From Candidatus Peregrinibacteria bacterium (GTDB lineage Bacteria; Patescibacteriota; Gracilibacteria; UBA1369), in assembly GCA_963708185.1 (NCBI GenBank), contig OY970195.1:949482-1013481 (forward strand): a stretch of 64,000 nt of DNA. Direction: 5' to 3'. The translations under genes and the position numbers were made by a program. Positions 38,253 to 53,131 of the stretch are shown piece after piece (position 1 is the stretch's first letter; the number at the start of each line of letters is the position of its first letter). Under the pieces are notes generated by a model. The model worked only from the letters and a program-made list of their open reading frames with translations, did no database searches and was not told the DNA's origin.

Positions 38253-38659
38253 CTCAGGACTTTCTTACTTCTTGTGCCGTATTGTGCGGTCAATGCTTCA
38301 ACAAGGGACCGTTCGTTTTCCGCAATAACAGGTTTGGCAAACTGTTCAAACTGTTCGAGTGTCGCGGGATCGTTTGCTATCCATATTGCTATCTCGACCA
38401 CCCTTGCGGAAGGAGGCATAGCGCCTGACATGAAAAGCACTTTTTCCCTTTCCGTAGGCCCAAGGATTCCCTCAGGCAATTTCGCTTCCGCTTTTTTAAC
38501 GATGTTCATGAGGGCCGTGGGGGCATGGGTAAAATTCTCAGCCAGGAACATCCACAGCTGCATATCCGGTTCCTGCAAATTTTTCAGAATGTCGGCAGCG
38601 GCTTCCGTGGTGAGGGATTCAAAACCGGGACTTAATTCATCAATCTTTTTTTCAGACAT
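38249..38659 (-). CDS. Hypothetical protein (all-alpha by composition)
   Basis: ORF with no family I recognise. The start is set at ATG 38659 (MSEKKIDEL), 10 nt after the nadK stop. Its stop interlocks with the ppdK stop. Confidence 0.45.
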   Translation of the reverse strand: MSEKKIDELSPGFESLTTEAAADILKNLQEPDMQLWMFLAENFTHAPTALMNIVKKAEAKLPEGILGPTEREKVLFMSGAMPPSARVVEIAIWIANDPATLEQFEQFAKPVIAENERSLVEALTAQYGTRSKKVLS

Positions 38660-38669
38660 GTTCTTTGGG

Positions 38670-39575
38670 TTATTCGCCAAATTGTTCGCCCCAGCGGAGT
38701 TTGTCACGGAGCATCTTGTAGTAATTGCCTCCCTTGAGCCTGACCAAATGAAAATAGCGGCTGGACTTGCGGATTTTCACTTCGTCTCCATATTCCAGTT
38801 TGATGGTTTCCTGGCCGTCGAGGGTCAGTCCCACGTTTTCTCCTTCGTGGCGACGGCGAGTATGTAAAGCGATTTTGAGCTGTCGGTCATTGGGGATGAC
38901 GATGGGACGGATGGAAAGCGTGGCAGGACAGATCGGCGTAAGAATGATTGCCGGGAGCGAAGGGTGGACAATCGGTCCGCCGGCGGAAAGCGAATGTCCG
39001 GTCGAGCCGGTCGGAGAACTGATGATAAGGCCGTCGGCATGGAAGGTGATGACCTTGCGCTGGTTGATGGAGACGTCCAGCTCGATAAGTCTTGCAAACG
39101 ATCCCTGGTTAATGACGGCGTCGTTCAAAGCCAGGAAAGTGTTGAATTTCTGCCCCTGGCGGTAGATGGTCACACGGAGGATGGATCGTTTGTCGATGAC
39201 GTAGCGGTTGTGCAGGACTTCGATGAGATCATGCTCGATGTTCTGGGGTTTTGATTCGGTCAAAATTCCCAGATTCCCGAAATTGAAACCCATGACGAGG
39301 GTCGTCTTTTTGCCCATGCGGCGGGCCGTTTTGAGGAGCGTTCCATCTCCTCCCATAACGACGACGAGGTCGCATTTCTGCAGCAGCACAGTTTTCTTGA
39401 ACCCTTCGCTTCGATCAAAAAGCGGCGCCGTATTGGTGTCGTAAAAAATTTTTTTGTCGTGTTTTTTGAGTACCCGGATGACCTCTTTGATGTATCCCAG
39501 ATGTTCTTTATTGTTCCTCTTGGTAATGATACCTACCGTCGTAATCTTTTTCTTGATGGGATCGACGAGCGTCAT
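38670..39575 (-). CDS. nadK: NAD kinase
   Basis: 301 aa with the GGDGTLL motif, NDAVI, and the SSPTGSTGHSLSAGGPIV motif. Confidence 0.9.
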   Translation of the reverse strand: MTLVDPIKKKITTVGIITKRNNKEHLGYIKEVIRVLKKHDKKIFYDTNTAPLFDRSEGFKKTVLLQKCDLVVVMGGDGTLLKTARRMGKKTTLVMGFNFGNLGILTESKPQNIEHDLIEVLHNRYVIDKRSILRVTIYRQGQKFNTFLALNDAVINQGSFARLIELDVSINQRKVITFHADGLIISSPTGSTGHSLSAGGPIVHPSLPAIILTPICPATLSIRPIVIPNDRQLKIALHTRRRHEGENVGLTLDGQETIKLEYGDEVKIRKSSRYFHLVRLKGGNYYKMLRDKLRWGEQFGE

Positions 39576-39633
39576 GGTGAGTTGAAAAGGTTACTGGAAA
39601 CAGTATAGAAGTTTCGTCGCAAATTGCCAATTT

Positions 39634-40695
39634 TTAAACCTTTCTGCCTGACTTTTTGCCCTTCTTTCTGCGGAGAACGAGCAGTATTGCTCCCGCGCCG
39701 ATCAGTAACGCTCCGCCAGGCTGCTGTTCACTGTCACTCTGATGTGAAGAAGCAATGTAACAGCCGATGGTTTCGGGATGGTCGATATCAAGAGGGATTT
39801 TCAAAGGAGTGTCTCCTTTTTGAAGCGTGAACTGTTCCTGTCTGCCTTCCTGGGTAATCAACGACTGGCCTTCGACGGGAACGACCGACACGTAGTGCAT
39901 CTTTTTCCCGGTCGTTGCGTCGATTTCGGGAGCAAGATACTGGACGAGGACTTTCCCGTTCGTCACGATGTGAAGAGACGCTTCACCAAGCATGACTGTT
40001 TCGGTTTGAGAGTTGGCGGCGTCCTTCACCATTTCGACGCAAAGCTTTCCTTCCTTCATGTAAATCTTATTCTGATCATTGGGTGATCCGTAGACTTCTC
40101 CACGGATCTTCATAGCAGCCTCGGGAGCCCATGGTTGGGTCAAAAAGCAATCCCGGGGAATTCCCTGGCTGTCGAGAAGCGTGTGGCCGATAATGTGTGT
40201 GGTGCCGTCGGCATCTGCGACAAATTCACAGGGGTTGCCGTTGGATTGAGGAATCTTGTCTTTGGACAGATCCTGATCAAAGGATTCCGGCCCGCATAAA
40301 TCCTCCACGAGAGGAACACCTCCGTCGGTATCCAGAGCGTCGGTTGCGCCACCTTCCCCTGGGCCAGCCGGTGCCGGGCCGCCCATCGGATCGGGTTCGT
40401 CCGAATCGCGGTTTTTCCTGGCTTCTTCTTTTTTGTCTTTTTTCACCATGACCGGCGGAACACGCGGAGTTTTCGGTCCCTGCTTGTTCTCGTCAGATTC
40501 AGGCATTCTTTTGACTGCCGGGGGTGTCGTCGCGACGATAGCCGCCGTGGCAACGGCGGTCGCGATCATGAGCGGACGGCTGCTGGATCTTCCAGGTGCT
40601 CTGCTTTTTCGATCTTCCACCTCCGTGGCGGGAGGGGTTTCGTCGACATGATCTTCCAGCTGTGGGAGACCGTTTTCAGGTCGTTCGTTTGGCAT
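39634..40695 (-). CDS. Surface-protein candidate with N-terminal TM/signal anchor and C-terminal TM + Arg/Lys tail
   Basis: 353 aa. Disordered acidic/basic N-terminus, hydrophobic LMIATAVATAAIVATT, a Pro/Gly-rich linker and a Cys-containing beta-rich domain. The C-terminus is ..SEQQPGGALLIGAGAILLVLRRKKGKKSGRKV. Confidence 0.55.
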   Translation of the reverse strand: MPNERPENGLPQLEDHVDETPPATEVEDRKSRAPGRSSSRPLMIATAVATAAIVATTPPAVKRMPESDENKQGPKTPRVPPVMVKKDKKEEARKNRDSDEPDPMGGPAPAGPGEGGATDALDTDGGVPLVEDLCGPESFDQDLSKDKIPQSNGNPCEFVADADGTTHIIGHTLLDSQGIPRDCFLTQPWAPEAAMKIRGEVYGSPNDQNKIYMKEGKLCVEMVKDAANSQTETVMLGEASLHIVTNGKVLVQYLAPEIDATTGKKMHYVSVVPVEGQSLITQEGRQEQFTLQKGDTPLKIPLDIDHPETIGCYIASSHQSDSEQQPGGALLIGAGAILLVLRRKKGKKSGRKV

Positions 40696-40787
40696 GATTT
40701 GAACACAAAAGTTACGGTGGGATATTATAATGATTTTAGCTTGAAATGCAATGCGAAAAGTGTTAGTCTGCGGGTGGACATAACTGT

Positions 40788-41354
40788 ATGTTTATGGCCG
40801 ATCTTGGCAACCACAATGAGTTCATTCATGACGCTGCTCTCGAGCAGGCGGATTTCCGTGTGCCTGAAGCAACGCTTCATCCCGACAAAAAAATCGTCGG
40901 AAAACTGAGGAATTCGGTTGCCCGCGCGTTACTGGTCGCTGCACCGATGATCGCATCGTGCGGCGGGCAGGTTGATACCGTGGACTCTTTCCAGGGTGTC
41001 GGTGGAGCGCAGGCCGGCCAGACGACTGAAAATATGAATTTGCGTGACCATGAAGTGGTCGTTGACTGCAACCAGGGCGGTACATGGAGATTTCAGGGCA
41101 ACTATCCCGAAGATTTCAGCGTGGTGGTCAGCGTTGACGGCAAAGAGATTGCCACCAAAGAGGTTGTTGTTGACCATTCGATTGATCCTTCAACCCTCAA
41201 GCAATTTTCCGTGGAAGGCCCGGTAGGAAACGTGCAGGCAAAAAACGTTCAGGTCCAGACTTTTGACCTCGACGGCAACGTCATTCCCATTGAAAGTGAC
41301 CCCCAGACGAAAGGCATGTACGGCAATCCTGATTGCCCCGTGGGTTTGGAGTAA
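40788..41354 (+). CDS. Putative lipoprotein (start uncertain)
   Basis: It has the lipobox-like motif ALLVAAPMIASCGG, but this is preceded by ~50 residues in the longest ORF, so the real start may be a non-ATG codon further downstream. No family recognised. Confidence 0.45.
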   Translation: MFMADLGNHNEFIHDAALEQADFRVPEATLHPDKKIVGKLRNSVARALLVAAPMIASCGGQVDTVDSFQGVGGAQAGQTTENMNLRDHEVVVDCNQGGTWRFQGNYPEDFSVVVSVDGKEIATKEVVVDHSIDPSTLKQFSVEGPVGNVQAKNVQVQTFDLDGNVIPIESDPQTKGMYGNPDCPVGLE

Positions 41355-41355
41355 T

Positions 41356-43467
41356 TTATTTGGAAGTTTTTCTTGTGACACCGTTCCAGTCCGCTGGAGG
41401 CGGAAAATTTGAGTATATCTCGGAACGTTCAACATAAAGCTTTGTTGGTCCGTCGTCCGGATAAGCCTTGAGGATTTCTGTGAATTTTCCGTGGGCCTCT
41501 TTGAATTTTCGTGAGTGGAACAGAACCATGGCTTCATTATATTGCTGGAGGAGTTTCACGGCGTCCGCTGGCAATTCTCCTTTTGGAGCCAGCAGTTCGA
41601 ACACCTTGATCGGTTCGGTTTTCCCAACAACGAGGATGGTGTCAAGTTCGCGGGTCTCAAACTGGTCTTTAATGATGCCATACGTACTCTGACTCATCAT
41701 AATGTGCGTTTCGTACTCCTTGTTCTGGCTTTCCAGGCGCGCACCAAGATTCACCACGTCGCCGAGGGCCGTGTAGTCAAAACGTTCGGTCGATCCCATG
41801 TTCCCCACAATGGCTTCGCCCGAACTCAATCCGCAGCGGAAGTCAATTTCGGGCTTTGGTTCTCCGCCGGGAAGCGGCGGATCTTTTTTCCACTTTTCAA
41901 GAAGTTCGTTGAGCTTGAGGCGCATTTTGAGCGCCGCGCGAGCGGCGCGGACGGCATGATCCTGTTGCGACACCGGTGCGCCGAACAACGCCATGATTCC
42001 ATCCCCTTCAAACTTGTCCACCGTCCCGCCTTCTTCCATGATGACCCGGGACATGGCTTCGAAATACTCGCTGAGGAGGGCCACCACGCTCTGCGGTTTT
42101 AATTTTTCTTCGATAGTGGTGGAATGGGCGATGTCCGTGAACATCACGGTGATGTTGCGGCTTTCCCCGCCGAGTTTGAGGCTTTCCGGGTGCTCGGAAA
42201 TCTGTTTCACCAGCGCCGGATTCACGTACTTGCCGAAAGCTTTTTGCAGCTCGAGTTTTTCACGGAATTCCGTGACGTAGCGGTAGAGGTACACGGCGAT
42301 AAAGGTCACGGCGACGACAAGGTAGGGATGCACGAGGTCGGGAATGATTCCGATGTTAAAAAGCGGTTTTGCTGTGAACGAATAGGCGACCGGCACCCCA
42401 AAAAGGTAGAGCAGCGACCAGCGGATTTTGGTGAACATGAAGGTGAAGGCCGCGGTAAAGGCCAGGATCAGGATGAGCAAAGCCTGTTCCGGAAAGCTGA
42501 AATTGCGGAGAAATTTTTGTTCGAGAATAGTCTGGAGCGCGTTGGCGTGGATTTCGATGCCGGTCATCTGATCTTTTTTGCTCATCGGAGTGAGCTGGAA
42601 ATCCTTGAAATATGATGAAGTGGGACCTATGAGAACGATCTTGTCTTTGAAGAGTTTTTCGGGATCCGTTGAAGAGTAATTTTCATTATAAACGTCGACG
42701 AAAGGAATCGACGCGTAAGATTCCGTTCCCGGTTGCGTGGCATAGTTCACGTACATTTGTCCTTCCTGAAGCGGAATATTCACCGTGTTTCCGTTTTGTA
42801 GTTTGATCTGGTATTGGGTCGGAGACACCAAAGGAGTTGAAGGCTTATTTTGGGCGTTGAGTGCAATTCTGGCTATCGTTAAAGCAAAGCTTTCATAATA
42901 GGTTCCGTCGGGATTTACAAGAATCGGCAAAATTTTCCTGATGGCGTTATCCGCATCAGGGATAACCTTAGCCATACTGATTTTGATGTTTTCAAGTTGA
43001 TTGAAAAGATCGAGTGGCAGTTCAAACGGAAAAATATTCGGATCCTGGATGTAGTACCCTCTTTGGTCGTAGCTGGTGGATGATCCCCAGTAAATAATGA
43101 CTGGATTTTTGGTATTCTGGAGGGCTTCTTTGAACTGTTCATCTTTTTGTTGATCTTTGGCTGACTTGAAAAAGAAGTCGAACGCCACGACTTTCGGATT
43201 ATATTTATCAATATTGTTGAGTACCTTAGCAAAATTATCGCGCTGCCAGTTCTCGTAGGAACCGAGGCCTGTGCTGTCGCTTAATGATTTATCGTCGATG
43301 GTCACAACTGTTATATCGCTGCTCGGAGACCTTTGGCTATACAGCAAGTCTCCCAACCGCAACTGCCATGCAGCGAGCACATTAGTATATGCGAGAATTA
43401 ACGTTACGATTGCCGCAGTGGTTCCAAAAATGAGGGCAAACGCCTTTTTATTTTTGAGAAATTTCAT
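41356..43467 (-). CDS. CHASE2 sensor / class III adenylate-guanylate cyclase with C-terminal helical (TPR-like) tail
   Basis: CHASE2 motif DITVVTIDDKSL..NWQRDNFAKVL..VVAFDFFF, then 3 TM segments. The cyclase core is ITVMFTDIAHSTTIEEKL..KFEGDGIMALFGAP..VNLGARLES. The start is set at ATG 43467 (MKFLKNKK). Confidence 0.85.
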   Translation of the reverse strand: MKFLKNKKAFALIFGTTAAIVTLILAYTNVLAAWQLRLGDLLYSQRSPSSDITVVTIDDKSLSDSTGLGSYENWQRDNFAKVLNNIDKYNPKVVAFDFFFKSAKDQQKDEQFKEALQNTKNPVIIYWGSSTSYDQRGYYIQDPNIFPFELPLDLFNQLENIKISMAKVIPDADNAIRKILPILVNPDGTYYESFALTIARIALNAQNKPSTPLVSPTQYQIKLQNGNTVNIPLQEGQMYVNYATQPGTESYASIPFVDVYNENYSSTDPEKLFKDKIVLIGPTSSYFKDFQLTPMSKKDQMTGIEIHANALQTILEQKFLRNFSFPEQALLILILAFTAAFTFMFTKIRWSLLYLFGVPVAYSFTAKPLFNIGIIPDLVHPYLVVAVTFIAVYLYRYVTEFREKLELQKAFGKYVNPALVKQISEHPESLKLGGESRNITVMFTDIAHSTTIEEKLKPQSVVALLSEYFEAMSRVIMEEGGTVDKFEGDGIMALFGAPVSQQDHAVRAARAALKMRLKLNELLEKWKKDPPLPGGEPKPEIDFRCGLSSGEAIVGNMGSTERFDYTALGDVVNLGARLESQNKEYETHIMMSQSTYGIIKDQFETRELDTILVVGKTEPIKVFELLAPKGELPADAVKLLQQYNEAMVLFHSRKFKEAHGKFTEILKAYPDDGPTKLYVERSEIYSNFPPPADWNGVTRKTSK

Positions 43468-43476
43468 ACAACGCAA

Positions 43477-43508
43477 AAAGTGCTTTTATCCGTTTATTAT
43501 AGCACTTT
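43477..43508 (-). terminator. Candidate terminator after paralog C
   Basis: An 8-bp stem (AAAGTGCT paired with AGCACTTT) with a 16-nt loop. On the minus strand the 3' arm runs into TTTTT. Confidence 0.45.
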
Positions 43509-43530
43509 TCAGGGTTTTCTTCCAGTTCTT

Positions 43531-45306
43531 TTAAGCCTTTTTTCTGCTTTTTCGGCGGGTAATCACCGCACCAAGTCCGGCCGCCATTAACAGCAGAGCC
43601 ATATTGTTTGCCGTATGATCCTGGACTTCCGTACAGGAACAGCCCGGGTCCTGCACTGGCGGAACGGTTTTGAATTTCTTGGGATCGTCAGCGACTTCTC
43701 CGGTGCTCAATTCACGATACATCGTTACACCAGCTGGAATAAGCCCTTTTTCACTTGAACCGGGAGCTGTGAAATCTACCGGATTGCAGTTATTCACTGT
43801 GGCATTTGTTGGTGTACAGTTTTGATCATAGGCGCGTTGTGCGCCTTCAACGGTTGTATAAGCAACAATGTCGAACTGTCCTTTCGCTTTGTTGGGGTTA
43901 AGAGAATCTGGGTAGGTAACTGTTGTGTGTGTTCCTTCAAAGCCAAGGGTTATACCACTTTCATTACTGATAATTTTATCGGCTTCTGTTGGCGGTTCAC
44001 TGTCTTCATGGGCCAGGCCGATTGAGACCTCAGACATATTTGGCTCAGAAAAATTGAAACTGCCCTGACCCTCGGTAAAGTTGAAGGTTTTATTGCCGAT
44101 CTGGACGGTTGCCGGTCCTTGCACCTGGGCATTGAGCTGGGTATCCGAACAGTCTTTGATCGTGATGTTTTCCGGATTATTGGTTACTTGGGCAAAGCAA
44201 CCCGGAGCGCCACCGTCACCGCCGGCGCCACCGTCAGAGCCACCACCTCCGTCGGTTCCCGCGTCTCCACCTGCGCCATCCGTTCCTGCATCGGTAGTGC
44301 CTGTTTTCATCGTCGCCCATTTGATTGTGCCGTTGTCTCCATACCACAGGTCTCCGGAGCTATCTTTGAATAATGTTCCCTGGGTGTTCGCGTCATTCAC
44401 TGTGGCGCTTCCTGAAATTGCATTCAGGTTCGTCACTCCGCCTGAACAGTTTGTTCCGTTCCAGCCTCCGTTATAGACCATTAAATCCAGACTCCCCAAT
44501 GTTCCTGTTCGGTCTGAACCTACATAAAAATCGTTCGTGTCTACGAAAATTCCATAGGTATCTTTCGTCAAATCGCTGCAGCTTGTTAATTCGCTCCATG
44601 TCCATGTCCCGATCACCGCTGTGTGGATTCTCTTATTGCTGCTTGAGATATCCGAACTTGCATAAATGTTCGTTCCTCCACTGTCGCATGCCACATTGTT
44701 CACGTTCGCTCCATCGTCATTTAATGTCCCGGGCACTGCTGCTAAACCGCTCACCACTCCACCTGACCATGTTCCTTCGTACAACTTACTGGAGAGACCA
44801 TCTCTTTCAGATACTACATAGGCTTTCCCTCCACACACTTTGAAATCAAATTCATTAAAACCTGAATTTGCTCCAGATACCGGGGTCAACGTTGGGCTGT
44901 TCCATGTCGCCCCTCCGTCCGATGAACCTATTTTTTTTATGTCCCCACTTTCAACTATGTACAACGTGATATTTGGTCCAGATCTTTCTACATAGGCTAT
45001 GTTTGCATTTACACCCAAACTCGGTACCGTCGGGGAATTCCACCCGCTCGCTAACGCTTCACTCGTTTGTCCAAGACGTTCCTGTCCGTTGCCCGACTCG
45101 CAACCCTGGAGGGCTGGAGGCAATAATGCCCCAAACGTCACTCCTCCGGCCAACAATAAAGCATTGCGGATGGCTTTGCGTCCTGCAAACGGTTGTAAAA
45201 TATTTTGACGATCAGATTTTTGGGTACGGGATACTTCTTTGTTCTCCGGGCTCCCGCTGAGTCGGTCTTTTGCCATAAGGGGAAAGGTAAAAGAAGTGGT
45301 GTCCAT
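43531..45306 (-). CDS. Tandem surface lipoprotein paralog C (Asp-box beta-rich domain, Gly/Asp linker, C-terminal sorting-like tail)
   Basis: The start is set at ATG 45306 (MDTTSFTF..), 5 nt after the stop of paralog B. Features: lipobox-like ALQGC, Asp-box SSDGGATW, and C-terminus ..PGCSCTEVQDHTANNMALLLMAAGLGAVITRRKSRKKA. Confidence 0.8.
   Translation of the reverse strand: MDTTSFTFPLMAKDRLSGSPENKEVSRTQKSDRQNILQPFAGRKAIRNALLLAGGVTFGALLPPALQGCESGNGQERLGQTSEALASGWNSPTVPSLGVNANIAYVERSGPNITLYIVESGDIKKIGSSDGGATWNSPTLTPVSGANSGFNEFDFKVCGGKAYVVSERDGLSSKLYEGTWSGGVVSGLAAVPGTLNDDGANVNNVACDSGGTNIYASSDISSSNKRIHTAVIGTWTWSELTSCSDLTKDTYGIFVDTNDFYVGSDRTGTLGSLDLMVYNGGWNGTNCSGGVTNLNAISGSATVNDANTQGTLFKDSSGDLWYGDNGTIKWATMKTGTTDAGTDGAGGDAGTDGGGGSDGGAGGDGGAPGCFAQVTNNPENITIKDCSDTQLNAQVQGPATVQIGNKTFNFTEGQGSFNFSEPNMSEVSIGLAHEDSEPPTEADKIISNESGITLGFEGTHTTVTYPDSLNPNKAKGQFDIVAYTTVEGAQRAYDQNCTPTNATVNNCNPVDFTAPGSSEKGLIPAGVTMYRELSTGEVADDPKKFKTVPPVQDPGCSCTEVQDHTANNMALLLMAAGLGAVITRRKSRKKA
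44341..45093. repeat. 753-bp block in paralog C, near-identical to 48263..49015 in paralog A
   Basis: Compared line by line at offset 3922. I saw one mismatch (45070 t versus 48992 c). Confidence 0.85.
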
Positions 45307-45614
45307 CTTGTTTAATCCTTTTTGCGGCGGCGCATTACAGACGCAAGGCCGAGCGCCAAGAGGATGAAACTCAAATTGTTGCGGGTTGAACCAACGTGAT
45401 CGGAAACCGAGCATCCTCCGCCGTTATCCGTGTTACTTTGGACGGGGGGAAGGGTGTTGAATTTGCTTGGATCATCGGCAAGTTTGCCGGTGGCAAGTTC
45501 ACGGTACATCGTGGTTCCGGCAGGAATCTCGCCTTTTTCAGATGAACTCTGAGCCGTGAAATCTACGGGAGTACAGTTCGCCACTGAGTTATTCTCCGGT
45601 TTGCAGGTGTTGTC
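45098..45614. repeat. 517-bp direct repeat, copy 1 (3' end of B + spacer + 5' leader of C)
   Basis: Identical by eye to 46990..47506 at offset 1892. The boundaries were found at mismatches 45097/46989 and 45615/47507. Confidence 0.85.
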
Positions 45615-47198
45615 ATAGGCCCGCTGTGCGCCTTCAACGGTGGTATAGGCTACCACTGCAAAGTTTCCGCTGGCTTTGTCGGGATTGAGGTTGTCGGGAT
45701 AGGTGACCGATGTTTTCGTCCCTTCGTACCCTAGCCATAGACCGTGCTGGTTATCGATAATTTTATCCGATTCAGAGGTAGGTTCACTCCCTTCGTAGGC
45801 GACTCCTGTTGAAAACTGAACAAAGTTTGGTTCAGCGAAACCAAATGTTCCGCTTCCTTCGGTGACTTTGAAAACCTTATTGCCAATGGCAATGGTCGTT
45901 GGAGCGCTCACATGTGCACTGACCGTTGTTGCGTTGCAGCTATCAATATTGAAATTTTCAGGATGATCAGTCGCTTTGGCAAAACAGTCGACGGGTTTTC
46001 CGGCGTCCATGCCGCCCGTGCCGGCATCTGAGCCACCCATTCCTGCGTCACTGCCTCCCATGCCTGCATCGCTTCCGCCTGCTCCCGCATCTGTTCCACC
46101 TTGGCCTCCAGCGTCTGAACCGCCGATACCTCCATCTGCGCCGCCTGTTCCGCTATCGGTACCGCCATCAGGCATACCTGTTTTCATCGTTGCCCATTTG
46201 ATCGTGCCGTTGTCTCCATACCACAGGTCTCCGGAGCTATCTTTGAATAATGTTCCCTGGGTGTTCGCGTCATTCACTGTGGCGCTTCCTGAAATTGCAT
46301 TCAGGTTCGTCACTCCGCCTGAACAGTTTGTTCCGTTCCAGCCTCCGTTATAGACCATTAAATCCAGACTCCCCAATGTTCCTGTTCGGTCTGAACCTAC
46401 ATAAAAATCGTTCGTGTCTACGAAAATTCCATAGGTATCTTTCGTCAAATCGCTGCAGCTTGTTAATTCGCTCCATGTCCATGTTCCAATATCAGCTGTG
46501 CGAATTCGATAGTTCGAAGTTACAGCATTTGACGTTGCGTACATTTTTGTTCCACTGCTGTCGCATGCGATATTATTCACATTCGAAAAATCATCATTCA
46601 ATGCTCCAGGAACTGCAGCCAATCCACTCACAACTCCCCCTGACCATGTCCCTTCATAGAGCTTAAATGATAATCCGTCTTTTGCTGAAACAACGTATGC
46701 TTTCCCTCCGCACACTTTAAAATCTTCTTCATCTTGAACTGAATTGGCACCTGTTACTGGTGTCGGTGATGGGCTATTCCAATTTATTCCGTCCGTTGTT
46801 CCTACTTTCTTGATGTCATAATTCCCTCCGGAATCGTTCACCACATAGAGCGTGATGTTTGATCCTGCTCTCTCCACATAGGCTATATTCGTATTCCCTG
46901 AAAGTCCCAAACTTGGCGTCGCCGGGGAATTCCACCCGCTCGCTAACGCTTCACTCGTTTGTCCAAGACGTTCCCACCCTTGCCCCGGTTCGCAACCCTG
47001 GAGGGCTGGAGGCAATAATGCCCCAAACGTCACTCCTCCGGCCAACAATAAAGCATTGCGGATGGCTTTGCGTCCTGCAAACGGTTGTAAAATATTTTGA
47101 CGATCAGATTTTTGGGTACGGGATACTTCTTTGTTCTCCGGGCTCCCGCTGAGTCGGTCTTTTGCCATAAGGGGAAAGGTAAAAGAAGTGGTGTCCAT
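45312..47198 (-). CDS. Tandem surface lipoprotein paralog B
   Basis: The start is set at ATG 47198. It has the same leader as C, a diverged first half of the beta-rich domain, and C-terminus ..NGGGCSVSDHVGSTRNNLSFILLALGLASVMRRRKKD. Confidence 0.8.
   Translation of the reverse strand: MDTTSFTFPLMAKDRLSGSPENKEVSRTQKSDRQNILQPFAGRKAIRNALLLAGGVTFGALLPPALQGCEPGQGWERLGQTSEALASGWNSPATPSLGLSGNTNIAYVERAGSNITLYVVNDSGGNYDIKKVGTTDGINWNSPSPTPVTGANSVQDEEDFKVCGGKAYVVSAKDGLSFKLYEGTWSGGVVSGLAAVPGALNDDFSNVNNIACDSSGTKMYATSNAVTSNYRIRTADIGTWTWSELTSCSDLTKDTYGIFVDTNDFYVGSDRTGTLGSLDLMVYNGGWNGTNCSGGVTNLNAISGSATVNDANTQGTLFKDSSGDLWYGDNGTIKWATMKTGMPDGGTDSGTGGADGGIGGSDAGGQGGTDAGAGGSDAGMGGSDAGMGGSDAGTGGMDAGKPVDCFAKATDHPENFNIDSCNATTVSAHVSAPTTIAIGNKVFKVTEGSGTFGFAEPNFVQFSTGVAYEGSEPTSESDKIIDNQHGLWLGYEGTKTSVTYPDNLNPDKASGNFAVVAYTTVEGAQRAYDNTCKPENNSVANCTPVDFTAQSSSEKGEIPAGTTMYRELATGKLADDPSKFNTLPPVQSNTDNGGGCSVSDHVGSTRNNLSFILLALGLASVMRRRKKD
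46218..46484. repeat. 267-bp core identical in all three paralogs (= 44341..44607 = 48263..48529)
   Basis: Compared by eye. Identity ends sharply at 46484/44607, where B diverges from A and C. Confidence 0.8.
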
Positions 47199-47506
47199 CT
47201 TGTTTAATCCTTTTTGCGGCGGCGCATTACAGACGCAAGGCCGAGCGCCAAGAGGATGAAACTCAAATTGTTGCGGGTTGAACCAACGTGATCGGAAACC
47301 GAGCATCCTCCGCCGTTATCCGTGTTACTTTGGACGGGGGGAAGGGTGTTGAATTTGCTTGGATCATCGGCAAGTTTGCCGGTGGCAAGTTCACGGTACA
47401 TCGTGGTTCCGGCAGGAATCTCGCCTTTTTCAGATGAACTCTGAGCCGTGAAATCTACGGGAGTACAGTTCGCCACTGAGTTATTCTCCGGTTTGCAGGT
47501 GTTGTC
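46990..47506. repeat. 517-bp direct repeat, copy 2 (3' end of A + spacer + 5' leader of B)
   Basis: Partner of 45098..45614. Confidence 0.85.
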
Positions 47507-49216
47507 GTAAGCGCGTTGGGATCCTTCAACCGTGGTGTAGGCGACAACCGCAAAGTTGCCGCTGGCTTTGTCGGGATTGAGGGTGTCCGGATAGGTGACG
47601 GTTGTTTTGGTACCTTCAAAACCAAGTGTAATGCCATGTTCGTTACTGATAATTTTATCGGCTTCAGTTGGCGGTTCACTCGCTTGATAGGCAACGCCTG
47701 TTGAAAACTGCATCAGGTTTGGTTCAGCGAAACCAAATGTTCCGCTTCCTTCGGTGACGGTGAAAACCTTATTGCCAACAGCAATGGTTGTTGGAGCGGA
47801 AACATGGGCCGTCACGGTCATTGCATCGCAGCTGTCTACCTGGAAATTTTCAGGATGATCAGTCGCTTTGGCAAAACAGTCGACGGGTTTTCCGGCGTCC
47901 ATGCCGCCCGTGCCGGCATCTGAGCCACCCATTCCTGCGTCACTGCCTCCCATGCCTGCATCGCTTCCGCCTGCTCCCGCATCTGTTCCACCCATTCCGG
48001 CGTCACTGCCTCCCATACCTGCATCGCTTCCGCCTGCTCCCGCATCTGTTCCACCTTGGCCTCCAGCGTCTGATCCACCGAGACCTCCATCCATTCCTCC
48101 CTGTCCTCCTGCATCTGAGCCGCCGAGTCCTCCGTCAGAGCCACCTTGGCCGCCAGCGTCCGAACCGCCGATACCTCCATCTGCGCCGCCTGTTCCGCTA
48201 TCGGTACCGCCATCAGGCATACCTGTTTTCATCGTTGCCCATTTGATCGTGCCGTTGTCTCCATACCACAGGTCTCCGGAGCTATCTTTGAATAATGTTC
48301 CCTGGGTGTTCGCGTCATTCACTGTGGCGCTTCCTGAAATTGCATTCAGGTTCGTCACTCCGCCTGAACAGTTTGTTCCGTTCCAGCCTCCGTTATAGAC
48401 CATTAAATCCAGACTCCCCAATGTTCCTGTTCGGTCTGAACCTACATAAAAATCGTTCGTGTCTACGAAAATTCCATAGGTATCTTTCGTCAAATCGCTG
48501 CAGCTTGTTAATTCGCTCCATGTCCATGTCCCGATCACCGCTGTGTGGATTCTCTTATTGCTGCTTGAGATATCCGAACTTGCATAAATGTTCGTTCCTC
48601 CACTGTCGCATGCCACATTGTTCACGTTCGCTCCATCGTCATTTAATGTCCCGGGCACTGCTGCTAAACCGCTCACCACTCCACCTGACCATGTTCCTTC
48701 GTACAACTTACTGGAGAGACCATCTCTTTCAGATACTACATAGGCTTTCCCTCCACACACTTTGAAATCAAATTCATTAAAACCTGAATTTGCTCCAGAT
48801 ACCGGGGTCAACGTTGGGCTGTTCCATGTCGCCCCTCCGTCCGATGAACCTATTTTTTTTATGTCCCCACTTTCAACTATGTACAACGTGATATTTGGTC
48901 CAGATCTTTCTACATAGGCTATGTTTGCATTTACACCCAAACTCGGTACCGTCGGGGAATTCCACCCGCTCGCTAACGCTTCACTCGTTTGCCCAAGACG
49001 TTCCTGTCCGTTGCCACTTTCCGAACTACACCCTTGCAGCATGGCCAGTGTTCCCGTGGAACCGCTGAACAAGCCTAAACCTCCTGCTAAAAGTAAAGCA
49101 TTTCTTATTCTGCCGCTGGTCGCTGTTTTGCCTTTTTCCAGAGCTTTTTGGGCTCGTACTGAACTTGAAGAAACTTCTTTGTTTTCTGATCCACCTTGAG
49201 GTCGATTAATCGCCAT
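47204..49216 (-). CDS. Tandem surface lipoprotein paralog A (longest Gly/Asp repeat)
   Basis: 670 aa with its own leader (MAINRPQGG.. AMLQGC). The beta-rich domain is identical to C and the C-terminal end is identical to B. Confidence 0.8.
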   Translation of the reverse strand: MAINRPQGGSENKEVSSSSVRAQKALEKGKTATSGRIRNALLLAGGLGLFSGSTGTLAMLQGCSSESGNGQERLGQTSEALASGWNSPTVPSLGVNANIAYVERSGPNITLYIVESGDIKKIGSSDGGATWNSPTLTPVSGANSGFNEFDFKVCGGKAYVVSERDGLSSKLYEGTWSGGVVSGLAAVPGTLNDDGANVNNVACDSGGTNIYASSDISSSNKRIHTAVIGTWTWSELTSCSDLTKDTYGIFVDTNDFYVGSDRTGTLGSLDLMVYNGGWNGTNCSGGVTNLNAISGSATVNDANTQGTLFKDSSGDLWYGDNGTIKWATMKTGMPDGGTDSGTGGADGGIGGSDAGGQGGSDGGLGGSDAGGQGGMDGGLGGSDAGGQGGTDAGAGGSDAGMGGSDAGMGGTDAGAGGSDAGMGGSDAGMGGSDAGTGGMDAGKPVDCFAKATDHPENFQVDSCDAMTVTAHVSAPTTIAVGNKVFTVTEGSGTFGFAEPNLMQFSTGVAYQASEPPTEADKIISNEHGITLGFEGTKTTVTYPDTLNPDKASGNFAVVAYTTVEGSQRAYDNTCKPENNSVANCTPVDFTAQSSSEKGEIPAGTTMYRELATGKLADDPSKFNTLPPVQSNTDNGGGCSVSDHVGSTRNNLSFILLALGLASVMRRRKKD
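47896..48226. repeat. In-frame coding tandem repeat (21/24-nt units; GGSDAGM / GGSDAGGQ / GGSDGGL)
   Basis: This region of paralog A is 153 nt longer than the homologous region of B (about 46004..46178). The alignment offset changes from 1892 to 2045 across it. The C linker (about 44195..44290) is shorter again. Confidence 0.8.
48263..49015. repeat. 753-bp block in paralog A, partner of 44341..45093
   Basis: See the partner entry. The first 267 bp are also shared with B (46218..46484). Confidence 0.85.
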
Positions 49217-49242
49217 ACTTGATAAAATTAAAGAAGTATTGC

Positions 49243-49272
49243 ATTATATGCTTATACCTTTAATTTTGTCAA
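49243..49272 (-). promoter_or_regulatory. Consensus sigma70 promoter of the paralog A-B-C operon
   Basis: The minus strand reads TTGACA (49272-49267), an 18-nt spacer, then TATAAT (49248-49243), 27 nt upstream of the ATG at 49216. Confidence 0.65.
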
Positions 49273-49300
49273 GGTTTTCCGAGTGAAAAACTAATGACAG

Positions 49301-50527
49301 TTATTGCTGAATAACGTATTGGAGCAAGCCGGCTTCCTGGGGGTTTTTGACTTCAAGAACCTGCTTGAAAGTTCCGGAGTATCCTTCCGCGGTAATCGTT
49401 TGAGATGTATCAGTGGGTGCTGAAGGAAGCGTTGAATCCGTTATGATTTGGTATTCAAGATAAGGTATTTTGCCTGCGCCGTACTCATCGAGGCTGTGGA
49501 TAGCCGAAAGCTTAAATACCGGTTTTGTGATGCCCTGTGCGCTCCAATTTGGTGCAGGAGGACAGCCGAATGTTATGCTATCAACGTTCGTTAAAAATTT
49601 GATGATCGATCCTCTACAGTTTTGAAGATCTAATCCGAAACTAGATTGTGATACGACGCTAAAACCCGCCCCTTCAGCATTGTTAATCTTGCCCTCGTGG
49701 ATGACTGATGTGTTTAAATTCCAAGCTGGTGGAATTGCTACAGCGTTAAATGAAAAATACGGTCCCAATGCATAGTTCTTACTCCCATCCGATGATTCTC
49801 CCGTAATCTGCCAGGAAACGATGGGGTCGTCATGATTATATTTCGGATCACCATTTGACGTGTCTAAATTCGGACGAGGGCTGCAGATAATATTCCCGTC
49901 TGTACATCCCGTTCTTACTCTTAAGGTAAAAGTCTGGCTTTGAGAGTTGAAAATGTTATGTGGGCCAGTTGCATCGGTATAGTAGAGCGGGATTGCGACG
50001 CTTTCGCCGACTTTGAGCTTGTTCCAGTTGCAGGGGTTGTCTTTTGGATCGGCGTATTGCACGGAGGTTCCGCCCGGGTCGGAGGAGTACACCAGTTTTG
50101 TATCGGGGTCGTACCAAAAAGGATCTTTTGTATCCGGATTGAGCGCGTCGCAGTTGGCGCCTATGTCGCCTGTTCCAGGTGTGGGGATGCCGTAACTGCC
50201 GTCCAAATATTTGGTGCTGACCGGCACCTGTCCCGAAATGCTGTAGTTTGAGGTCGGCTGCTTGGTTGATACTGTGGTTGTGCCAACGGTGTAGCCCGCT
50301 CCCTGATTCTGATTGGCCAGAAGCCCTTCTTCGAGAGCTCCTTCCGCGGCATAATACGCCTGGTTGGCGCCGGTGACGTTGGCGGATTCACGGATCGAGG
50401 AGACCACGACCGTGGTCACGCCCAAAGAGACCAGCACGATGATGGTGGTGAGTCCGAGCGCTACCAGCAGCGATGTTCCCGGCTTGGTTGAACGCGCAAA
50501 TTTTCGGAGGAAATTTTTATAAGGCAT
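49301..50527 (-). CDS. PilX-N-like pseudopilin / type IV pilus-associated protein
   Basis: 408 aa. The N-terminus KPGTSLLVALGLTTIIVLVSLGVTTVVVSSIRESANVTGANQAYYAAEGALEEGLL matches the PilX_N pattern (hydrophobic helix, then ..A.YAAEAGLE..). The rest is beta-rich. Confidence 0.55.
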   Translation of the reverse strand: MPYKNFLRKFARSTKPGTSLLVALGLTTIIVLVSLGVTTVVVSSIRESANVTGANQAYYAAEGALEEGLLANQNQGAGYTVGTTTVSTKQPTSNYSISGQVPVSTKYLDGSYGIPTPGTGDIGANCDALNPDTKDPFWYDPDTKLVYSSDPGGTSVQYADPKDNPCNWNKLKVGESVAIPLYYTDATGPHNIFNSQSQTFTLRVRTGCTDGNIICSPRPNLDTSNGDPKYNHDDPIVSWQITGESSDGSKNYALGPYFSFNAVAIPPAWNLNTSVIHEGKINNAEGAGFSVVSQSSFGLDLQNCRGSIIKFLTNVDSITFGCPPAPNWSAQGITKPVFKLSAIHSLDEYGAGKIPYLEYQIITDSTLPSAPTDTSQTITAEGYSGTFKQVLEVKNPQEAGLLQYVIQQ

Positions 50528-50665
50528 ATGTTTTTGATTTGGGGTTTGATTTGAGGCCTGCAGCTTGAGCTTTCTTGTTCTTCAGGCTTTTTTATATTTT
50601 ACCATAATTATTTTTGGTTGTCTATACATTAGCTCAAAATAACTCCTTCCGCTTCCCTTATTGAA

Positions 50666-50726
50666 GAACCCCGGGGTCAACAAAACTGGCGCTTTTTTCA
50701 GGCGTCTTTTCTGTGACCCCGGGTTC
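50666..50726. repeat. Imperfect 13/14-bp inverted repeat with 34-nt spacer in the M23 / PilX-like intergenic region
   Basis: GAACCCCGGGGTCA (50666-50679) and TGACCCCGGGTTC (50714-50726). Confidence 0.6.
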
Positions 50727-50773
50727 AAGGTTAAGACCCGCTGGCTCCCGTCACTGACATTCCTTGCGGATGG

Positions 50774-53131
50774 TCACGGTGCCGGTCGAATACATACACG
50801 AAGACTGGGAACACGAAGCCGGCGAGAGGACCTCGCCCTCACCCCCGCTCCATTCACGGAACCGTAACCGCTGATGTAGGAAACCGAAAACGTCCTCCAC
50901 GGCGTACAGGTGTCACCGGAATTTCCGGTGTAGGTGTCGCCGAGTTGAGGGGTGTGGTTGTCGTCGGTAAGGATGGTTTTGTAGCTGTTGCTAAAACTTC
51001 CTCCCTGCTTGCAGACATTGTACTTCCAGGTGGAACCCGAAACCTGTTGTACAGCGATGCAAAGCGTTGGACCATTGGGGTTGGTGTAGCAAGCGGGGCT
51101 GCTGCTTGCCAAAAACACGTCCTGGCACTGTTGCTGGGGCGGGACGGAGCATGTACTCCAGCCGCTCCAAAAACAGCTGCTCTGACAGGTTCGGGTTTGG
51201 GTTCCGTTCGTGTTGCAGGACTGGTTCTGGGTCTGACCGGGGGGGCAAACGCCCTGATTGAGGCATGAGCTCCACTGGCCGTTCTGGTTACACGTAGCAG
51301 TCCCGCAGTTCCCGCAGACAGCGGTTTGGCCTGCGCTGCAGACGGGTGGCGATCCTCCGGTTCCTGAACCGCTCCCGTTGCCGGATGAACCGCCCGACCC
51401 CCCGCTACCACCGGAACCGCTGCTTCCCGGGGTCCCTCCGCTGCCTGAGCTTCCGCCCGATCCGCTGGTATCCAGATAGCAGGTCCCCGTTTGGATGTCG
51501 CAGAGCGTTCCCGGTCCGCAATATCCGCCGCAGGGGTCGTTGTTTCCACTTCCGGACGATCCCGCGCCGCCTCCGGTTCCGCCGCTGCTTGCGGTCCCAC
51601 CAGAACCAGTGGAGTTGCCGCTTCCTGCACTTCCGCCGGTTCCTTGATCTCCCCCTTCGTAACCGCCGCCTGCGGGGCAGACGTTGGTTTCGCTGGGGAT
51701 GCAAGCCGGGACTTCGTAGCACTGGCTCGTTGCGGGATCACAAAAGAAACCTTCGGGACAGGACAGGTAACTGCACGGACCCAAGGCTTCATCATCAATC
51801 TGCCGGGCTCCTTCACTGATCCATTTGGCGATCTCCTCCCGTTTGATGGGGTTGTTGGGGTAAAAATCCGACTGCACTTGGACGAGCCCTTTTTGCGCAC
51901 CATAGTACACAAAGGGAGCATACCAGTCGCCGGGGTTCACGTCCTGGAACTGGCCCAGGAGTTGCGTTGCTGCGGCCTTCTGAGCCTTCCAGATGAAGTT
52001 ATCGTAGAGTTCGAGAAACTCCGCGGAATGGAAGCTGAGGATGACCATTTTGAGGGCCTGGGCTCGGGTAACCGGATCGTCGGGATGGAAGTAACGGAGC
52101 CCTCCAATCACACTCGCATCCCTGTTGATGACCGGATACCTGGAAGGGTAAACGGCGAGGGCTTCGATATACGGCTCATCGGAATCGGCTGCCGGAACAT
52201 CCGTGAACGTGGGGAGAGCGGGCACTGCGTCATACTGCCGAGCTGCAATCTTCAGCCACCGGGCCGCTTCCCTGCGCGTGACGTTTTGACCTGCGCCGTA
52301 GCGCCCGTCAAACAGTCCAAACTCGATACCGCGGTGGCGGACGTCGAGCACGTAGGGCAGTGACCAGGCATAATCCGGCAAATTCCCGCCAAACTGGTAG
52401 TCGCTGAACGTGTCTTCGAGAACACCTTCCGGATCGAGATTCTTGGCGATCTTGCTGTCATCGCCGAAGGTGTAGCCATATCCAAGAACGGCAAGGACGC
52501 CGCTTTGCATGGCCTTCTTCAGCTCCTTGAGGTTCTTCCAGCGGCGAATACCGAAATGAAGATGGGTACCCGTCACATTGCCGGTGTTTCCTTCCTTTCC
52601 GATGACGTCACCGGTATTCACGGTCTCACAGGCGTTGAACTTCCGACTGGTTTTGTTCGTCGACGTGTCGTAGTGCATGTGGTGATAGTGGTAGGTGATG
52701 ATTTCGTCGGAAAAGGCGTTGGCGCGGGTGGCAATGACGATGGTTTCACCCCACTTGTGAGAGTCGTCCTGGCCCAATGACATGACGACAAATCCATCCT
52801 GAACCGACGTAATGTCATTGATGCCCGGGGTGTGACTGGAATTGACCAGATCCAATCCATCATGGCCGTAGAGCCATTTCCCGTTGGACGAGTAGCCCTC
52901 GTCATAGGAGGTATCGTACCCCTGACTGACCTCATGCGGAGAGAAGGGCTGTTGCATGTTTTCCACCAGCCTCTCCACGACAGGGATGTCGGTAAGATTT
53001 ATAGTGGTGCACATACCGCTCGTGATGAACTTTTCCATTCCTCCGTCACCCGCGTTCGCCGTAGAGGCGAACGCGGCCAAGGACATGGTCGCCAAAACAA
53101 GCAGCAACTTGAAAAGTCGATGCGCTTTCAT
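50774..53131 (-). CDS. Secreted M23 (LytM-type) peptidase with three SLH-like domains, Gly/Ser linkers and Cys-rich C-terminal modules
   Basis: Signal peptide ..AAFASTANA, with SD AAGGAG 7 nt upstream. M23 motifs HDGLDL and GNTGNVTGTHLHFGIRR. SLH-like repeats are FTDVPAADSDEPYIEAL.., FQDVNPGDWYAPFVYYGA..IKREEIAKWI. The C-terminal part is Cys-rich and includes CFWSGWSTCS. Confidence 0.8.
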   Translation of the reverse strand: MKAHRLFKLLLVLATMSLAAFASTANAGDGGMEKFITSGMCTTINLTDIPVVERLVENMQQPFSPHEVSQGYDTSYDEGYSSNGKWLYGHDGLDLVNSSHTPGINDITSVQDGFVVMSLGQDDSHKWGETIVIATRANAFSDEIITYHYHHMHYDTSTNKTSRKFNACETVNTGDVIGKEGNTGNVTGTHLHFGIRRWKNLKELKKAMQSGVLAVLGYGYTFGDDSKIAKNLDPEGVLEDTFSDYQFGGNLPDYAWSLPYVLDVRHRGIEFGLFDGRYGAGQNVTRREAARWLKIAARQYDAVPALPTFTDVPAADSDEPYIEALAVYPSRYPVINRDASVIGGLRYFHPDDPVTRAQALKMVILSFHSAEFLELYDNFIWKAQKAAATQLLGQFQDVNPGDWYAPFVYYGAQKGLVQVQSDFYPNNPIKREEIAKWISEGARQIDDEALGPCSYLSCPEGFFCDPATSQCYEVPACIPSETNVCPAGGGYEGGDQGTGGSAGSGNSTGSGGTASSGGTGGGAGSSGSGNNDPCGGYCGPGTLCDIQTGTCYLDTSGSGGSSGSGGTPGSSGSGGSGGSGGSSGNGSGSGTGGSPPVCSAGQTAVCGNCGTATCNQNGQWSSCLNQGVCPPGQTQNQSCNTNGTQTRTCQSSCFWSGWSTCSVPPQQQCQDVFLASSSPACYTNPNGPTLCIAVQQVSGSTWKYNVCKQGGSFSNSYKTILTDDNHTPQLGDTYTGNSGDTCTPWRTFSVSYISGYGSVNGAGVRARSSRRLRVPSLRVCIRPAP

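Follow-up and report, generated by a model that had tools for sequence, protein, structure and literature searches.

How did three adjacent genes of a Peregrinibacteria (CPR) genome come to share stretches of perfect identity that are out of register with the genes themselves? Within the window, the 64-kb stretch of DNA analyzed, genes A (47204..49216, 670 aa, delimited by ORF and alignment), B (45312..47198, 628 aa) and C (43531..45306, 591 aa) lie in tandem, all on the minus strand, and each is a full-length ORF with its own start codon. The exact protein A is on record, from a 1,437,033-bp contig. A preliminary description of this DNA gave the spacers between the genes as 5 nt. This is so with the annotated starts, but homologues align to a second ATG in B (47168) and in C (45276), and if these alternative starts are used the spacers are 35 nt. 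That description also placed a perfect TTGACA-18-TATAAT promoter before A only, and our scan agreed: the sequence at 49243..49272 (minus strand), 26 nt upstream of the gene A ATG, was the sole 12/12 match within 43300–49600. A hairpin does follow C, at 43475..43510 (minus strand) between gene C and a cyclase gene, but it is weak (10-bp AU-rich stem, 16-nt loop, −10.2 kcal/mol, z = −1.86) and was not called in a terminator scan of the region. A, B and C would be co-transcribed from the single promoter. The upstream neighbor (49301..50527, minus strand, 408 aa) encodes a PilX/GspK-like, minor-pseudopilin-like protein with sub-threshold matches to PilX_N (E 0.019), GspK (best 1.3e-3) and the tapirin N-terminus (best 4.4e-5). 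The downstream cyclase gene (41356..43476, minus strand) was identified with Pfam as a CHASE2-domain adenylate/guanylate cyclase (CHASE2, 5.9e-51; Guanylate_cyc, 1.7e-23).

The domain plan proposed for the three proteins was borne out by alignment and by an AlphaFold model of C (mean pLDDT 78, both domains >90): a lipobox-like leader, a beta-propeller, a Gly/Asp/Ser repeat linker, an all-beta C-terminal domain and a Cys-TM-Arg tail. No family was found for A, B or C in a Pfam/NCBIfam search at E≤1. Structural matches to the predicted fold of the propeller domain were solely beta-propellers, and its distant profile matches were BNR_2 proteins. In fold, in these profile matches and in having an Asp-box (one clear instance, S-x-D-G-x-x-W) it resembles the BNR/Asp-box propellers (sialidase-like, VPS10, GH74). 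Unlike them it is small, about 250 residues in roughly five blades; only the one Asp-box is clear, and A, B and C had no match to Pfam BNR or BNR_2. The leader is long, with its Cys at residue 63–69. In A (49028..49039), B (46992–47003) and C (45100–45111), all on the minus strand, there is a lipobox-like LQGC, which fits the lipobox [LVI][ASTVI][GAS]C at −3, −1 and +1 but not at −2 (Gln). Across 24 full-length family members, 19 have [GAS]C after a hydrophobic stretch, and one relative (P0005) has a canonical lipobox, VSAC. The GGSDAG-type linker is encoded by tandem repeats of 21, 63 and 45 nt that keep the reading frame (47916..48181, minus strand; Tandem Repeats Finder), and by alignment it is 51 codons longer in A than in B.

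What had been described as a TM helix with a basic tail is present, but the fuller feature is a conserved, MYXO-CTERM-like tripartite Cys-TM-Arg signal, found in 24/24 full-length members. The tail of A (47207..47314, minus strand) reads GGGCS...TM...RRRKKD, with identical sequence in B (45315–45422). C has a second type, GCSC...TM...RRKSRKKA (43534..43644, minus strand), whose TM segment is helix 565–587 in the structure model. G-C-S is invariant in a six-sequence alignment, and C-x-C occurs in 11 of the 24 members. The tail is predicted to be an anchoring or sorting signal that may be processed, and A, B and C are presumptive surface proteins. MYXO-CTERM surface proteins of Myxococcota, such as TraA, are sorted by myxosortase (PMC11980579; Haft preprint 10.1101/2023.06.07.544157). 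They share with our family an invariant-Cys motif (often with a second Cys two residues on), a TM helix and an Arg-rich cluster, on otherwise variable surface proteins, but belong to a different phylum, and A, B and C also have the lipobox-like N-terminal Cys. The MYXO-CTERM-type model TIGR03901 matched 5 of 20 relatives scanned over nearly its full length, at 19.9, 19.7, 17.4, 16.0 and 15.9 bits, all below its curated cutoff of 20 bits; it had no match in A, B or C, and C gave a weak Loki-CTERM match (E 0.17). No membrane-protein ORF with the EExxxR, FxxxH and HxxxN motifs of a CPBP/Rce1-type myxosortase was found in the 64-kb window (of about 1.44 Mb) or in the relatives' loci. CPR cells are not known to have an outer membrane.

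Pairwise comparison of the genes upheld all four identity statements of the preliminary description, with small corrections. A 517-bp junction unit at 46990..47506, comprising A's last 101 codons, the spacer and B's first 70 codons, recurs with 0 mismatches at 45098..45614, where it comprises B's last 101 codons, the spacer and C's first 70 codons (both minus strand); neither end is extendable. A and C share a block that runs in A from just past the lipobox to the propeller end. The 753 bp originally noted (44341–45093 and 48263–49015) contain a single mismatch (45070, T/C), and 14 bp more to the left extend the block to 767 bp (A, 48249..49015; C, 44327..45093; minus strand). A core identical in all three genes is present, but its length is 281 bp, not 267 (A, 48249..48529; B, 46204..46484; C, 44327..44607; minus strand). 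Identity between A and B runs 87 bp past this core, to 48162/46117, and is found again over 150 bp (47843–47992 and 45951–46100) and over the final 300 bp of both genes. The patch EPPTEADKIISNE.GITLGFEGT in A (47609..47677, minus strand) follows its C counterpart (43930–43998), with 59/69 nt shared between A and C vs 46/69 between A and B; it appears to be a short, older conversion patch.

Relationships among the genes conflict along their length. A has a unique leader, an N-domain whose variable part is that of C, the longest linker, and a C-domain and tail of B type. B has the leader of C, a private N-terminal variable segment, and a linker, C-domain end and tail identical to those of A. C combines the B-identical leader and A-identical N-domain with a short linker, a C-domain and a tail type of its own. 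Reading A as a C-type 5′ half joined to a B-type 3′ end is right for the N-domain and the 3′ end, but ignores its unique leader. Gene B has the layout of a hybrid middle gene: it starts at its 5′ end like the gene downstream, finishes at its 3′ end like the gene upstream, and the junction unit is duplicated.

Identity was clustered in sharp blocks and divergence was not evenly spread: a Sawyer-type permutation over 526 polymorphic sites gave p≤1e-4 for every gene pair. The proposal of gene conversion or unequal crossover among the copies gained support from silent sites, with dS = 0 in the identity blocks vs 0.8–3.2 in directly adjoining segments, where silent changes are saturated. The divergent segments, with dN/dS of 0.11–0.17 and no sign of diversifying selection, appear to be old paralogous modules under purifying selection. 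Two such segments are private to B. One is the N-terminal variable segment of the propeller (46485..46922, minus strand), with 73% aa identity to A and C, dS of about 1.45 and dN/dS of 0.14–0.15; the other is a C-domain segment differing from A (45615..45950, minus strand), with dS of 0.84 to A and 3.2 to C and dN/dS of 0.11–0.13. Both are flanked by blocks identical to another copy, and neither has a donor within the A/B/C array. The core matches at 100% among A, B and C but at only about 36% against homologues from other genomes, and this part of the protein is therefore not one that evolves slowly; the 'variable' N-terminal part reaches 45% identity to homologues elsewhere. Judged from these sequence comparisons, the mosaic requires homologous recombination between the tandem paralogues, whether gene conversion, unequal crossover or the two together, and the latest events seem to have homogenized and reshuffled the modules.

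In related genomes the locus has the same order, with the PilX/GspK-like gene followed by one or two family genes and these by the CHASE2 cyclase. The PilX/GspK-like gene is directly upstream of the family gene in loci L001, L002, L006, L008 and L012, with only a cut gene there in L003 and L007, and the cyclase is in the equivalent position in L001, L002/3, L006 and L008/9. There is one family gene in four other lineages, two in L001 and three here, so that the copy-number differences known (1, 2, 3) are between lineages only. The family looks to be a lineage-restricted, uncharacterized surface protein of Peregrinibacteria. The hints of host contact are confined to the predicted surface-anchoring signals and the conserved PilX/GspK-like neighbor. 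In L001, an independent assembly, the two paralogues match perfectly along a 753-bp block in the propeller region, with 17–57% identity elsewhere. Block mosaics were also found in the family members P0005/P0016 and P0035/P0037; P0005 and P0016 are diverged versions of the locus from the same samples, in another lineage, with module swaps between them. In a tree of the tails, based on about 40 residues only, C paired with the second paralogue of L001 (93% bootstrap) and A/B with its first (54%), while N- and C-domains grouped within each genome (98–100%). Tails grouping across genomes and domains within them is the pattern predicted by concerted evolution after an older duplication. Cyclase identity to the window was 63% for single-copy L006 and 62% for two-copy L001; L006 is no more distant from the window than L001, and an older duplication therefore implies loss in L006. 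No second genome of this species was found in the collections searched, where A, B and C are one-member clusters.

We consider it probable that A, B and C are tandem paralogues whose mosaic arose by repeated recombination, combining unequal crossover and gene conversion. Homologous recombination would start in already identical stretches, above all the central core. Unequal crossover would change copy number and duplicate a unit made up of core, 3′ part, spacer and the next gene's 5′ part, which would account both for a 517-bp identity block out of register with the genes and for a middle gene, B, that begins like its downstream neighbor and ends like its upstream one. Gene conversion, in tracts of about 70 to 770 bp, would later replace parts of one copy by sequence from another, as in the A/C propeller block, the A/B linker flanks and the short patch in A resembling C. 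The net effect would be modules that are shuffled and partly homogenized (concerted evolution); the leader of A and the tail of C, at the array's outer edges, would escape homogenization. The order and direction of these events are as we infer them. Because the B-private segments have no donor in the array, a single crossover in a two-gene ancestor is insufficient; the array calls for three or four events at the minimum, or for DNA from another strain. Recombination of tandem copies is a known evolutionary route, here in a new protein family. A further point against this explanation is that A and C, though not neighbors, are identical over the propeller and the intervening B is not.

The evidence for three copies comes from a single assembly. 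In an independent short-read assembly of run ERR11571143 (Logan), the contigs recovered align to the window with 0 mismatches over 7048 and 1881 bp. Each breaks off on one side at a repeat edge (44355 and 48953), the former within 1–2 nt of a predicted k=31 branch at the C-core edge; they do not continue through the repeats and are uninformative on copy number. In an assembly chimera, the true genome would have two genes with identical propellers, and 'B' would be a second strain's alleles, threaded in via the shared junction and core, with the 517-bp repeat a single graph node used twice. L001 carries just two genes, whose N-domains are identical, matching the A/C identity here; such repeats are hard for short-read assembly, and family genes are cut at or near contig ends in L004, L005 and a 1710-bp contig of P0004. 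The donorless segments of B and the co-occurrence of P0005 and P0016 also favor a mixture of strains. Yet the record is a single 1.44-Mb contig, and so probably closed or curated, B is an intact full-length reading frame, and a second strain would have to combine dS of about 1.45 in one segment with no differences at all in the flanking 517 bp and the core. Even then recombination would be needed, though between strains. We judge such an artifact rather improbable. It is possible, though doubtful, that a diverged relative was the source of the B-private segments and perhaps of others, which would have entered by homologous recombination anchored in the identical blocks, making the array both a within-genome and a between-strain mosaic and adding to the recombination among paralogues that we favor. 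The absence of an internal donor, the bounding of both segments by blocks identical to another copy, and the module swaps between P0005 and P0016 fit such an import. Against it, no candidate donor turned up in any collection searched, and B's variable segment is as distant from the L006 and L001 homologues as A's, so any donor must be a close, unsampled relative.

Two further readings fare worse. The array had been described as cassettes. One reading is programmed antigenic or phase variation on the model of vls, pilE/pilS or msp2, with silent copies feeding a single expression site. The sole strong promoter upstream of A, the predicted surface proteins and the clear gene conversion would suit it. 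But the term cassette did not survive: all three copies are complete ORFs with start codons, leader/signal sequences, both domains and tail, lying 5–35 nt apart in one orientation behind one promoter, which is operon-like, and the array contains no promoterless, truncated silent cassette, silent donor or expression site. Low dN/dS in the divergent parts, single-copy loci in most relatives, and linker repeats in multiples of 3 nt, whose slippage alters length without on/off switching, also speak against it, and we think it very unlikely. The last reading dispenses with recombination: recent duplications would have diverged unevenly, with blocks kept by strong purifying selection, as the position of the identical core in a well-folded propeller might suggest. 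It has practically no chance of being correct. Stretches of dS 0 over hundreds of bp lie beside dS >1, and selection alone is ruled out, because selection at the protein level does not remove silent differences. One identical block covers a stop codon, a spacer and a poorly conserved leader. The silent-site contrast, the conflict among the three pairwise relationships along the gene and the weak conservation of the core between genomes refute this reading.

Repeated recombination among tandem paralogues, the explanation we prefer, has a counterpart in the lpl cluster of the S. aureus nuSa-alpha island, with its central conserved region and an evolutionary unit spanning two adjacent genes (Tsuru & Kobayashi 2008, PMC2568036). 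Common to both are same-strand, tandem genes of lipoprotein type (a putative one here, with short spacers of 5 or 35 nt), a highly conserved central region in every gene (281 bp here, and the recombination site in lpl), variable regions whose 5′ and 3′ relationships conflict, a unit across two adjacent genes (the 517 bp at the A/B and B/C junctions here) and recombination that changes copy number, or would do so here. The proteins themselves are unrelated, A, B and C having no Lpl/DUF576 match (Pfam/NCBIfam, E≤1), and our proteins also carry a C-terminal anchoring signal. The lpl model was defined by multi-strain comparison, whereas here there are three copies in one genome of an uncultivated CPR host. 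Hemoglobin anti-Lepore hybrid genes arise by unequal crossover between adjacent paralogues. Although B is not simply C's 5′ plus A's 3′ throughout, and further conversion events are needed, it resembles an anti-Lepore gene in being a middle gene, made of the downstream gene's 5′ and the upstream gene's 3′, that lies between both parents with the junction duplicated.

The three genes form a head-to-tail array on the minus strand: A at 47204-49216 (670 aa), B at 45312-47198 (628 aa) and C at 43531-45306 (591 aa), each a complete ORF. Their proteins are on record from one 1,437,033-bp contig. GC content is ~50%, and Candidatus Peribacter riflensis, with 58.5%, was rejected as the source for that reason. 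Every identity block claimed in the preliminary description is present. The 517-bp junction unit, in which the end of one gene, the spacer and the start of the next (45098-45614) recur at 46990-47506, has no mismatch and cannot be extended at either end. The block claimed for A and C (44341-45093 = 48263-49015) has one mismatch and runs 14 bp longer than claimed, to 767 bp. A core identical in all three genes exists, at 281 bp rather than the claimed 267 (44327-44607 = 46204-46484 = 48249-48529). Further identity between A and B covers 48162-48529/46117-46484, 150 bp early in the C-domain, and the final 300 bp of both genes. The short patch of A (47609-47677) that was said to follow C does so, with 59 of 69 nt matching between A and C versus 46 of 69 between A and B. 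B and C each have two candidate starts, which give a spacer of 5 or 35 nt. Their first ATG has AGGA 9 nt upstream, within the last codons of the preceding gene; it is to the second in-frame ATG (47168 and 45276, minus strand; MAKDRLSG...) that homologues from elsewhere align.

The arrangement is one of sharp blocks, not of evenly spread divergence. When the 526 polymorphic alignment columns were permuted 10,000 times, no permutation matched the observed run of agreement for any of the three gene pairs. dS is 0 within identical blocks, against 1.4–1.5 between B and each of the other two across the first half of the propeller domain, 0.84 for A versus B in the middle of the C-domain, and 2.0–3.2 for C versus A or B in the C-domain. 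Given these dS values and a dN/dS of 0.11–0.17, the divergent segments must be old and subject to purifying selection, and the identity beside them results from very recent exchange. This segment-wide dN/dS also argues against diversifying selection. Constraint cannot account for the identity, because one block continues past a stop codon and the spacer into a leader of low conservation, and because the core is less conserved between genomes (~36% identity with homologues) than the “variable” part (45%). Recombination among the copies, as had been proposed, is thus supported both by the juxtaposition of dS values and by the permutation result in all three pairs.

The recombination mechanism is textbook, with a close precedent in the lpl genes of S. 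aureus; what is new here is the protein family and the poorly known phylum. In the lpl cluster (PMC2568036), each gene has a central conserved region, the 5′ and 3′ variable regions have conflicting relationships, and the conserved unit is the 3′ variable part plus the spacer plus the 5′ part of the next gene. The A/B/C array has all three traits of this anatomy. If two such genes underwent unequal crossover within their core, exactly this unit would be duplicated, and a middle gene would arise with the start of the downstream gene and the end of the upstream gene, the layout of B. A single crossover is insufficient, because neither A nor C has a match for the B propeller segment 46485-46922, and because A diverges from B along ~340 bp of the C-domain. 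The array needs a minimum of three or four exchanges, or an outside donor; the exchanges include a ~770-bp conversion between A and C and a short, older A/C patch. These genes make up a tandem family in which modules are reshuffled and in part homogenised, and the variation in linker length and module combination is real. The locus illustrates cleanly how a tandem surface-protein family evolves in concert within a reduced genome (~1.4 Mb).

Support from reads came from two Logan contigs, an independent short-read assembly of run ERR11571143, which match the window with no mismatches at 37308-44355 (7048 bp) and 48953-50833 (1881 bp). One end of each falls at the border of a shared block, where 31-mer multiplicity changes. 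The repeats are therefore present in the reads, in a number of copies on which these matches carry no information, as are the joins between the unique 3′ part of C and the core and between the unique leader of A and the start of the shared propeller. The assembly could instead be a chimera of two strains, “B” being the second strain’s alleles threaded through the shared junction and core; we consider this improbable, and the mosaic would even then reflect recombination, occurring between strains. In two related loci from other assemblies (L004, PLYH01000003.1; L005, JAGOLJ010000067.1) and on the 1710-bp contig of family protein P0004, the family gene is cut at or near the contig end. This fits repeats at the locus routinely breaking short-read assemblies.

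Related loci have a conserved gene order of a PilX/GspK-like gene, one or more family genes, and a CHASE2 adenylate/guanylate cyclase gene. The likeness of the first to PilX/GspK consists of weak sub-threshold hits, recurring in several members. L002/L003, L006/L007 and L008/L009 carry a single family gene, L001 carries two and the window three; in L012 the pair of PilX-like and family genes recurs. Over the propeller, the two L001 paralogues have a 753-bp block without a single difference, but downstream their identity is only 17–57%. L001 thus shows the same kind of feature in a different organism and an independent assembly.

In trees built by region, the N- and C-domains cluster by genome, with A/B/C together at 98–100%, whereas the tail tree crosses genomes, joining C to L001_2 (93% bootstrap) and A/B to L001_1 (54%), on the basis of ~40 residues. 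Bootstrap values in the leader tree were 10–42%. Conflict between domain and tail trees is what concerted evolution following an older duplication predicts, the outer edges of the array escaping homogenisation. From these trees, a duplication older than the concerted evolution of the array is likely; we hold it at that level because the tail signal is so short and because L006, with its single copy, is no more distant from the window than L001 is.

Sharp block mosaics were also found in the protein pairs P0005/P0016 and P0035/P0037. P0035 (L012) and P0037, from other metagenomes, have C-terminal halves 97–100% identical and N-domains 30–40% identical. Their pattern is that of the L001 pair in reverse, which makes block mosaicism a recurrent feature of the family. 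P0016 follows a second, partly identical PilX-like gene and was found in the samples that also contain P0005. Two versions of the PilX-like gene plus family gene co-occur in samples (L002 3317-7053 and L014 1-3106; ERZ15185023, ERZ28614920): stretches of the PilX-like gene and leader are 94–100% identical, the N-domains are unrelated (~20% aa identity), the linker is 90–100% identical and the tail 97%. In the P0016 version (L014), MNT/HepT toxin–antitoxin genes come next instead of the cyclase gene.

Neither Pfam nor NCBIfam assigned A, B or C to a family, and profiles of both domains found no match in a sequence search of solved structures. Searching 1.84 billion representatives exhaustively with a profile gave 64 matches, 27 at E ≤ 1e-10; the strong ones are mostly 600–900 aa, laid out as in A/B/C. 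The only true matches in a word-indexed protein search were A/B/C themselves and their relatives P0004 and P0005, the rest being spurious hits to the low-complexity linker. Just one partial relative was gained with an N-domain-only profile. A scan of JGI metagenome contigs gave no relative, and a scan of a genome collection gave two loci only, each cut at or near a contig end; the recovered loci with named records belong to metagenome-assembled genomes of Candidatus Peregrinibacteria and Gracilibacteria.

A first model, from 6 sequences, was poor (pLDDT 50.6) and its fold matches unreliable. A second, an AlphaFold model of C with a 34-sequence alignment, was confident (mean pLDDT 78, most of both domains >90). 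In it, residues ~88-335 are predicted to be all-beta, and searches of the PDB and BFVD libraries matched them to beta-propellers only; among hits of similar size, the best have five blades, with a target TM-score of ~0.55. Fold searches with this model returned generic propellers only, and the propeller dominated whole-model hits. The C-domain (residues ~370-550) is likewise predicted to be all-beta. Distant profile matches of the Asp-box region are BNR_2 proteins; “Asp-box beta-rich domain” is a fair label. The Gly/Asp/Ser linker consists of in-frame tandem repeats of 21, 45 and 63 nt and varies in length among A, B and C. The leader ends in LQGC, a lipobox-like sequence non-canonical at position -2, and 19 of 24 full-length members have [GAS]C after the hydrophobic stretch.

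The tail had been described as a TM helix with a basic tail, which is correct but too general: in all 24 full-length members a motif with an invariant Cys (often C-x-C) precedes a spacer, the TM helix and an Arg/Lys cluster. The MYXO-CTERM model matched 5 of 20 relatives scanned, nearly full length, at 15.9–19.9 bits; A, B and C had no hit to it in the NCBIfam scan. Because the relatives fall below the 20-bit cutoff and A/B/C have no hit, we call the tail MYXO-CTERM-like, not a member. Such an architecture is found in four Cys-type sorting signals, with processing by CPBP/Rce1-like proteases (Haft, 10.1101/2023.06.07.544157); CPR bacteria go unmentioned in that text. A motif search of the 64-kb window and related loci gave no convincing candidate for a CPBP-type protease. 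Two genes downstream of the cyclase gene, an unrelated protein of 353–367 aa (window 39634-40695, minus strand; L001 16854-17957; L004 3796-4899) has a similar tail, of a Cys, ~20 residues, a TM helix and RRKK/RRRK; its NCBIfam matches are weak and to sortase-type signals only. The Cys-TM-Arg arrangement may thus be an anchoring or sorting signal that different proteins of these bacteria share. As a possible new sorting signal, the tail suggests that Cys-type signals extend past the phyla in which they were defined.

A single perfect promoter upstream of A was confirmed; other promoter-like sites are no commoner than in shuffled sequence. The hairpin reported after C exists but is weak. Its loop holds an extended -10-like element, TGcTATAAT, just upstream of the cyclase start (43476-43510, minus strand), so the cyclase gene may have its own promoter and need no read-through from A/B/C. 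The cassette reading was not borne out: all copies are complete genes with no excess of amino-acid change, and this is not cassette-type antigenic variation.

An attached lifestyle, on other cells, is assumed for CPR bacteria; to our knowledge, almost nothing is known of their surface proteins and how these change, and we found no literature on gene conversion in them. The variation and host-contact reading is unproven. Host contact is plausible only by context, given the surface anchoring signals, a propeller of ligand-binding type and a pseudopilin-like neighbour, and the three-gene module of pseudopilin-like protein, propeller protein and CHASE2 cyclase is a conserved candidate for cell contact or sensing. 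This module and the tail signal are the most interesting leads. A more speculative reading, to which we give little weight, is that A/B/C are the variable receptor of a Peregrinibacteria-specific surface module. They would then be anchored by a sorting system so far undescribed, which would act on C-terminal Cys-type signals, be related to MYXO-CTERM and operate where there is no outer membrane. By exchanging leaders, propellers, linkers, C-domains and tails as modules, both inside a genome and among strains that occur together, the family would vary the recognition of partners or hosts, by analogy with TraA polymorphism in partner recognition by myxobacteria.

Two other genes of the window deserve mention. 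At 28281-34712 (plus strand) is a 2143-aa bacterial alpha-2-macroglobulin with the full MG/bait/TED/MG10 set plus Big_5 domains, a large protease trap considering the genome size. The gene at 50774-53131 (minus strand) encodes an M23 peptidase with an SLH domain, after which comes a long C-terminal region rich in Gly/Ser and in Cys. One of the Logan contigs (L013) ends inside this gene, at 50833, and the gene has a syntenic counterpart in L008/L009.
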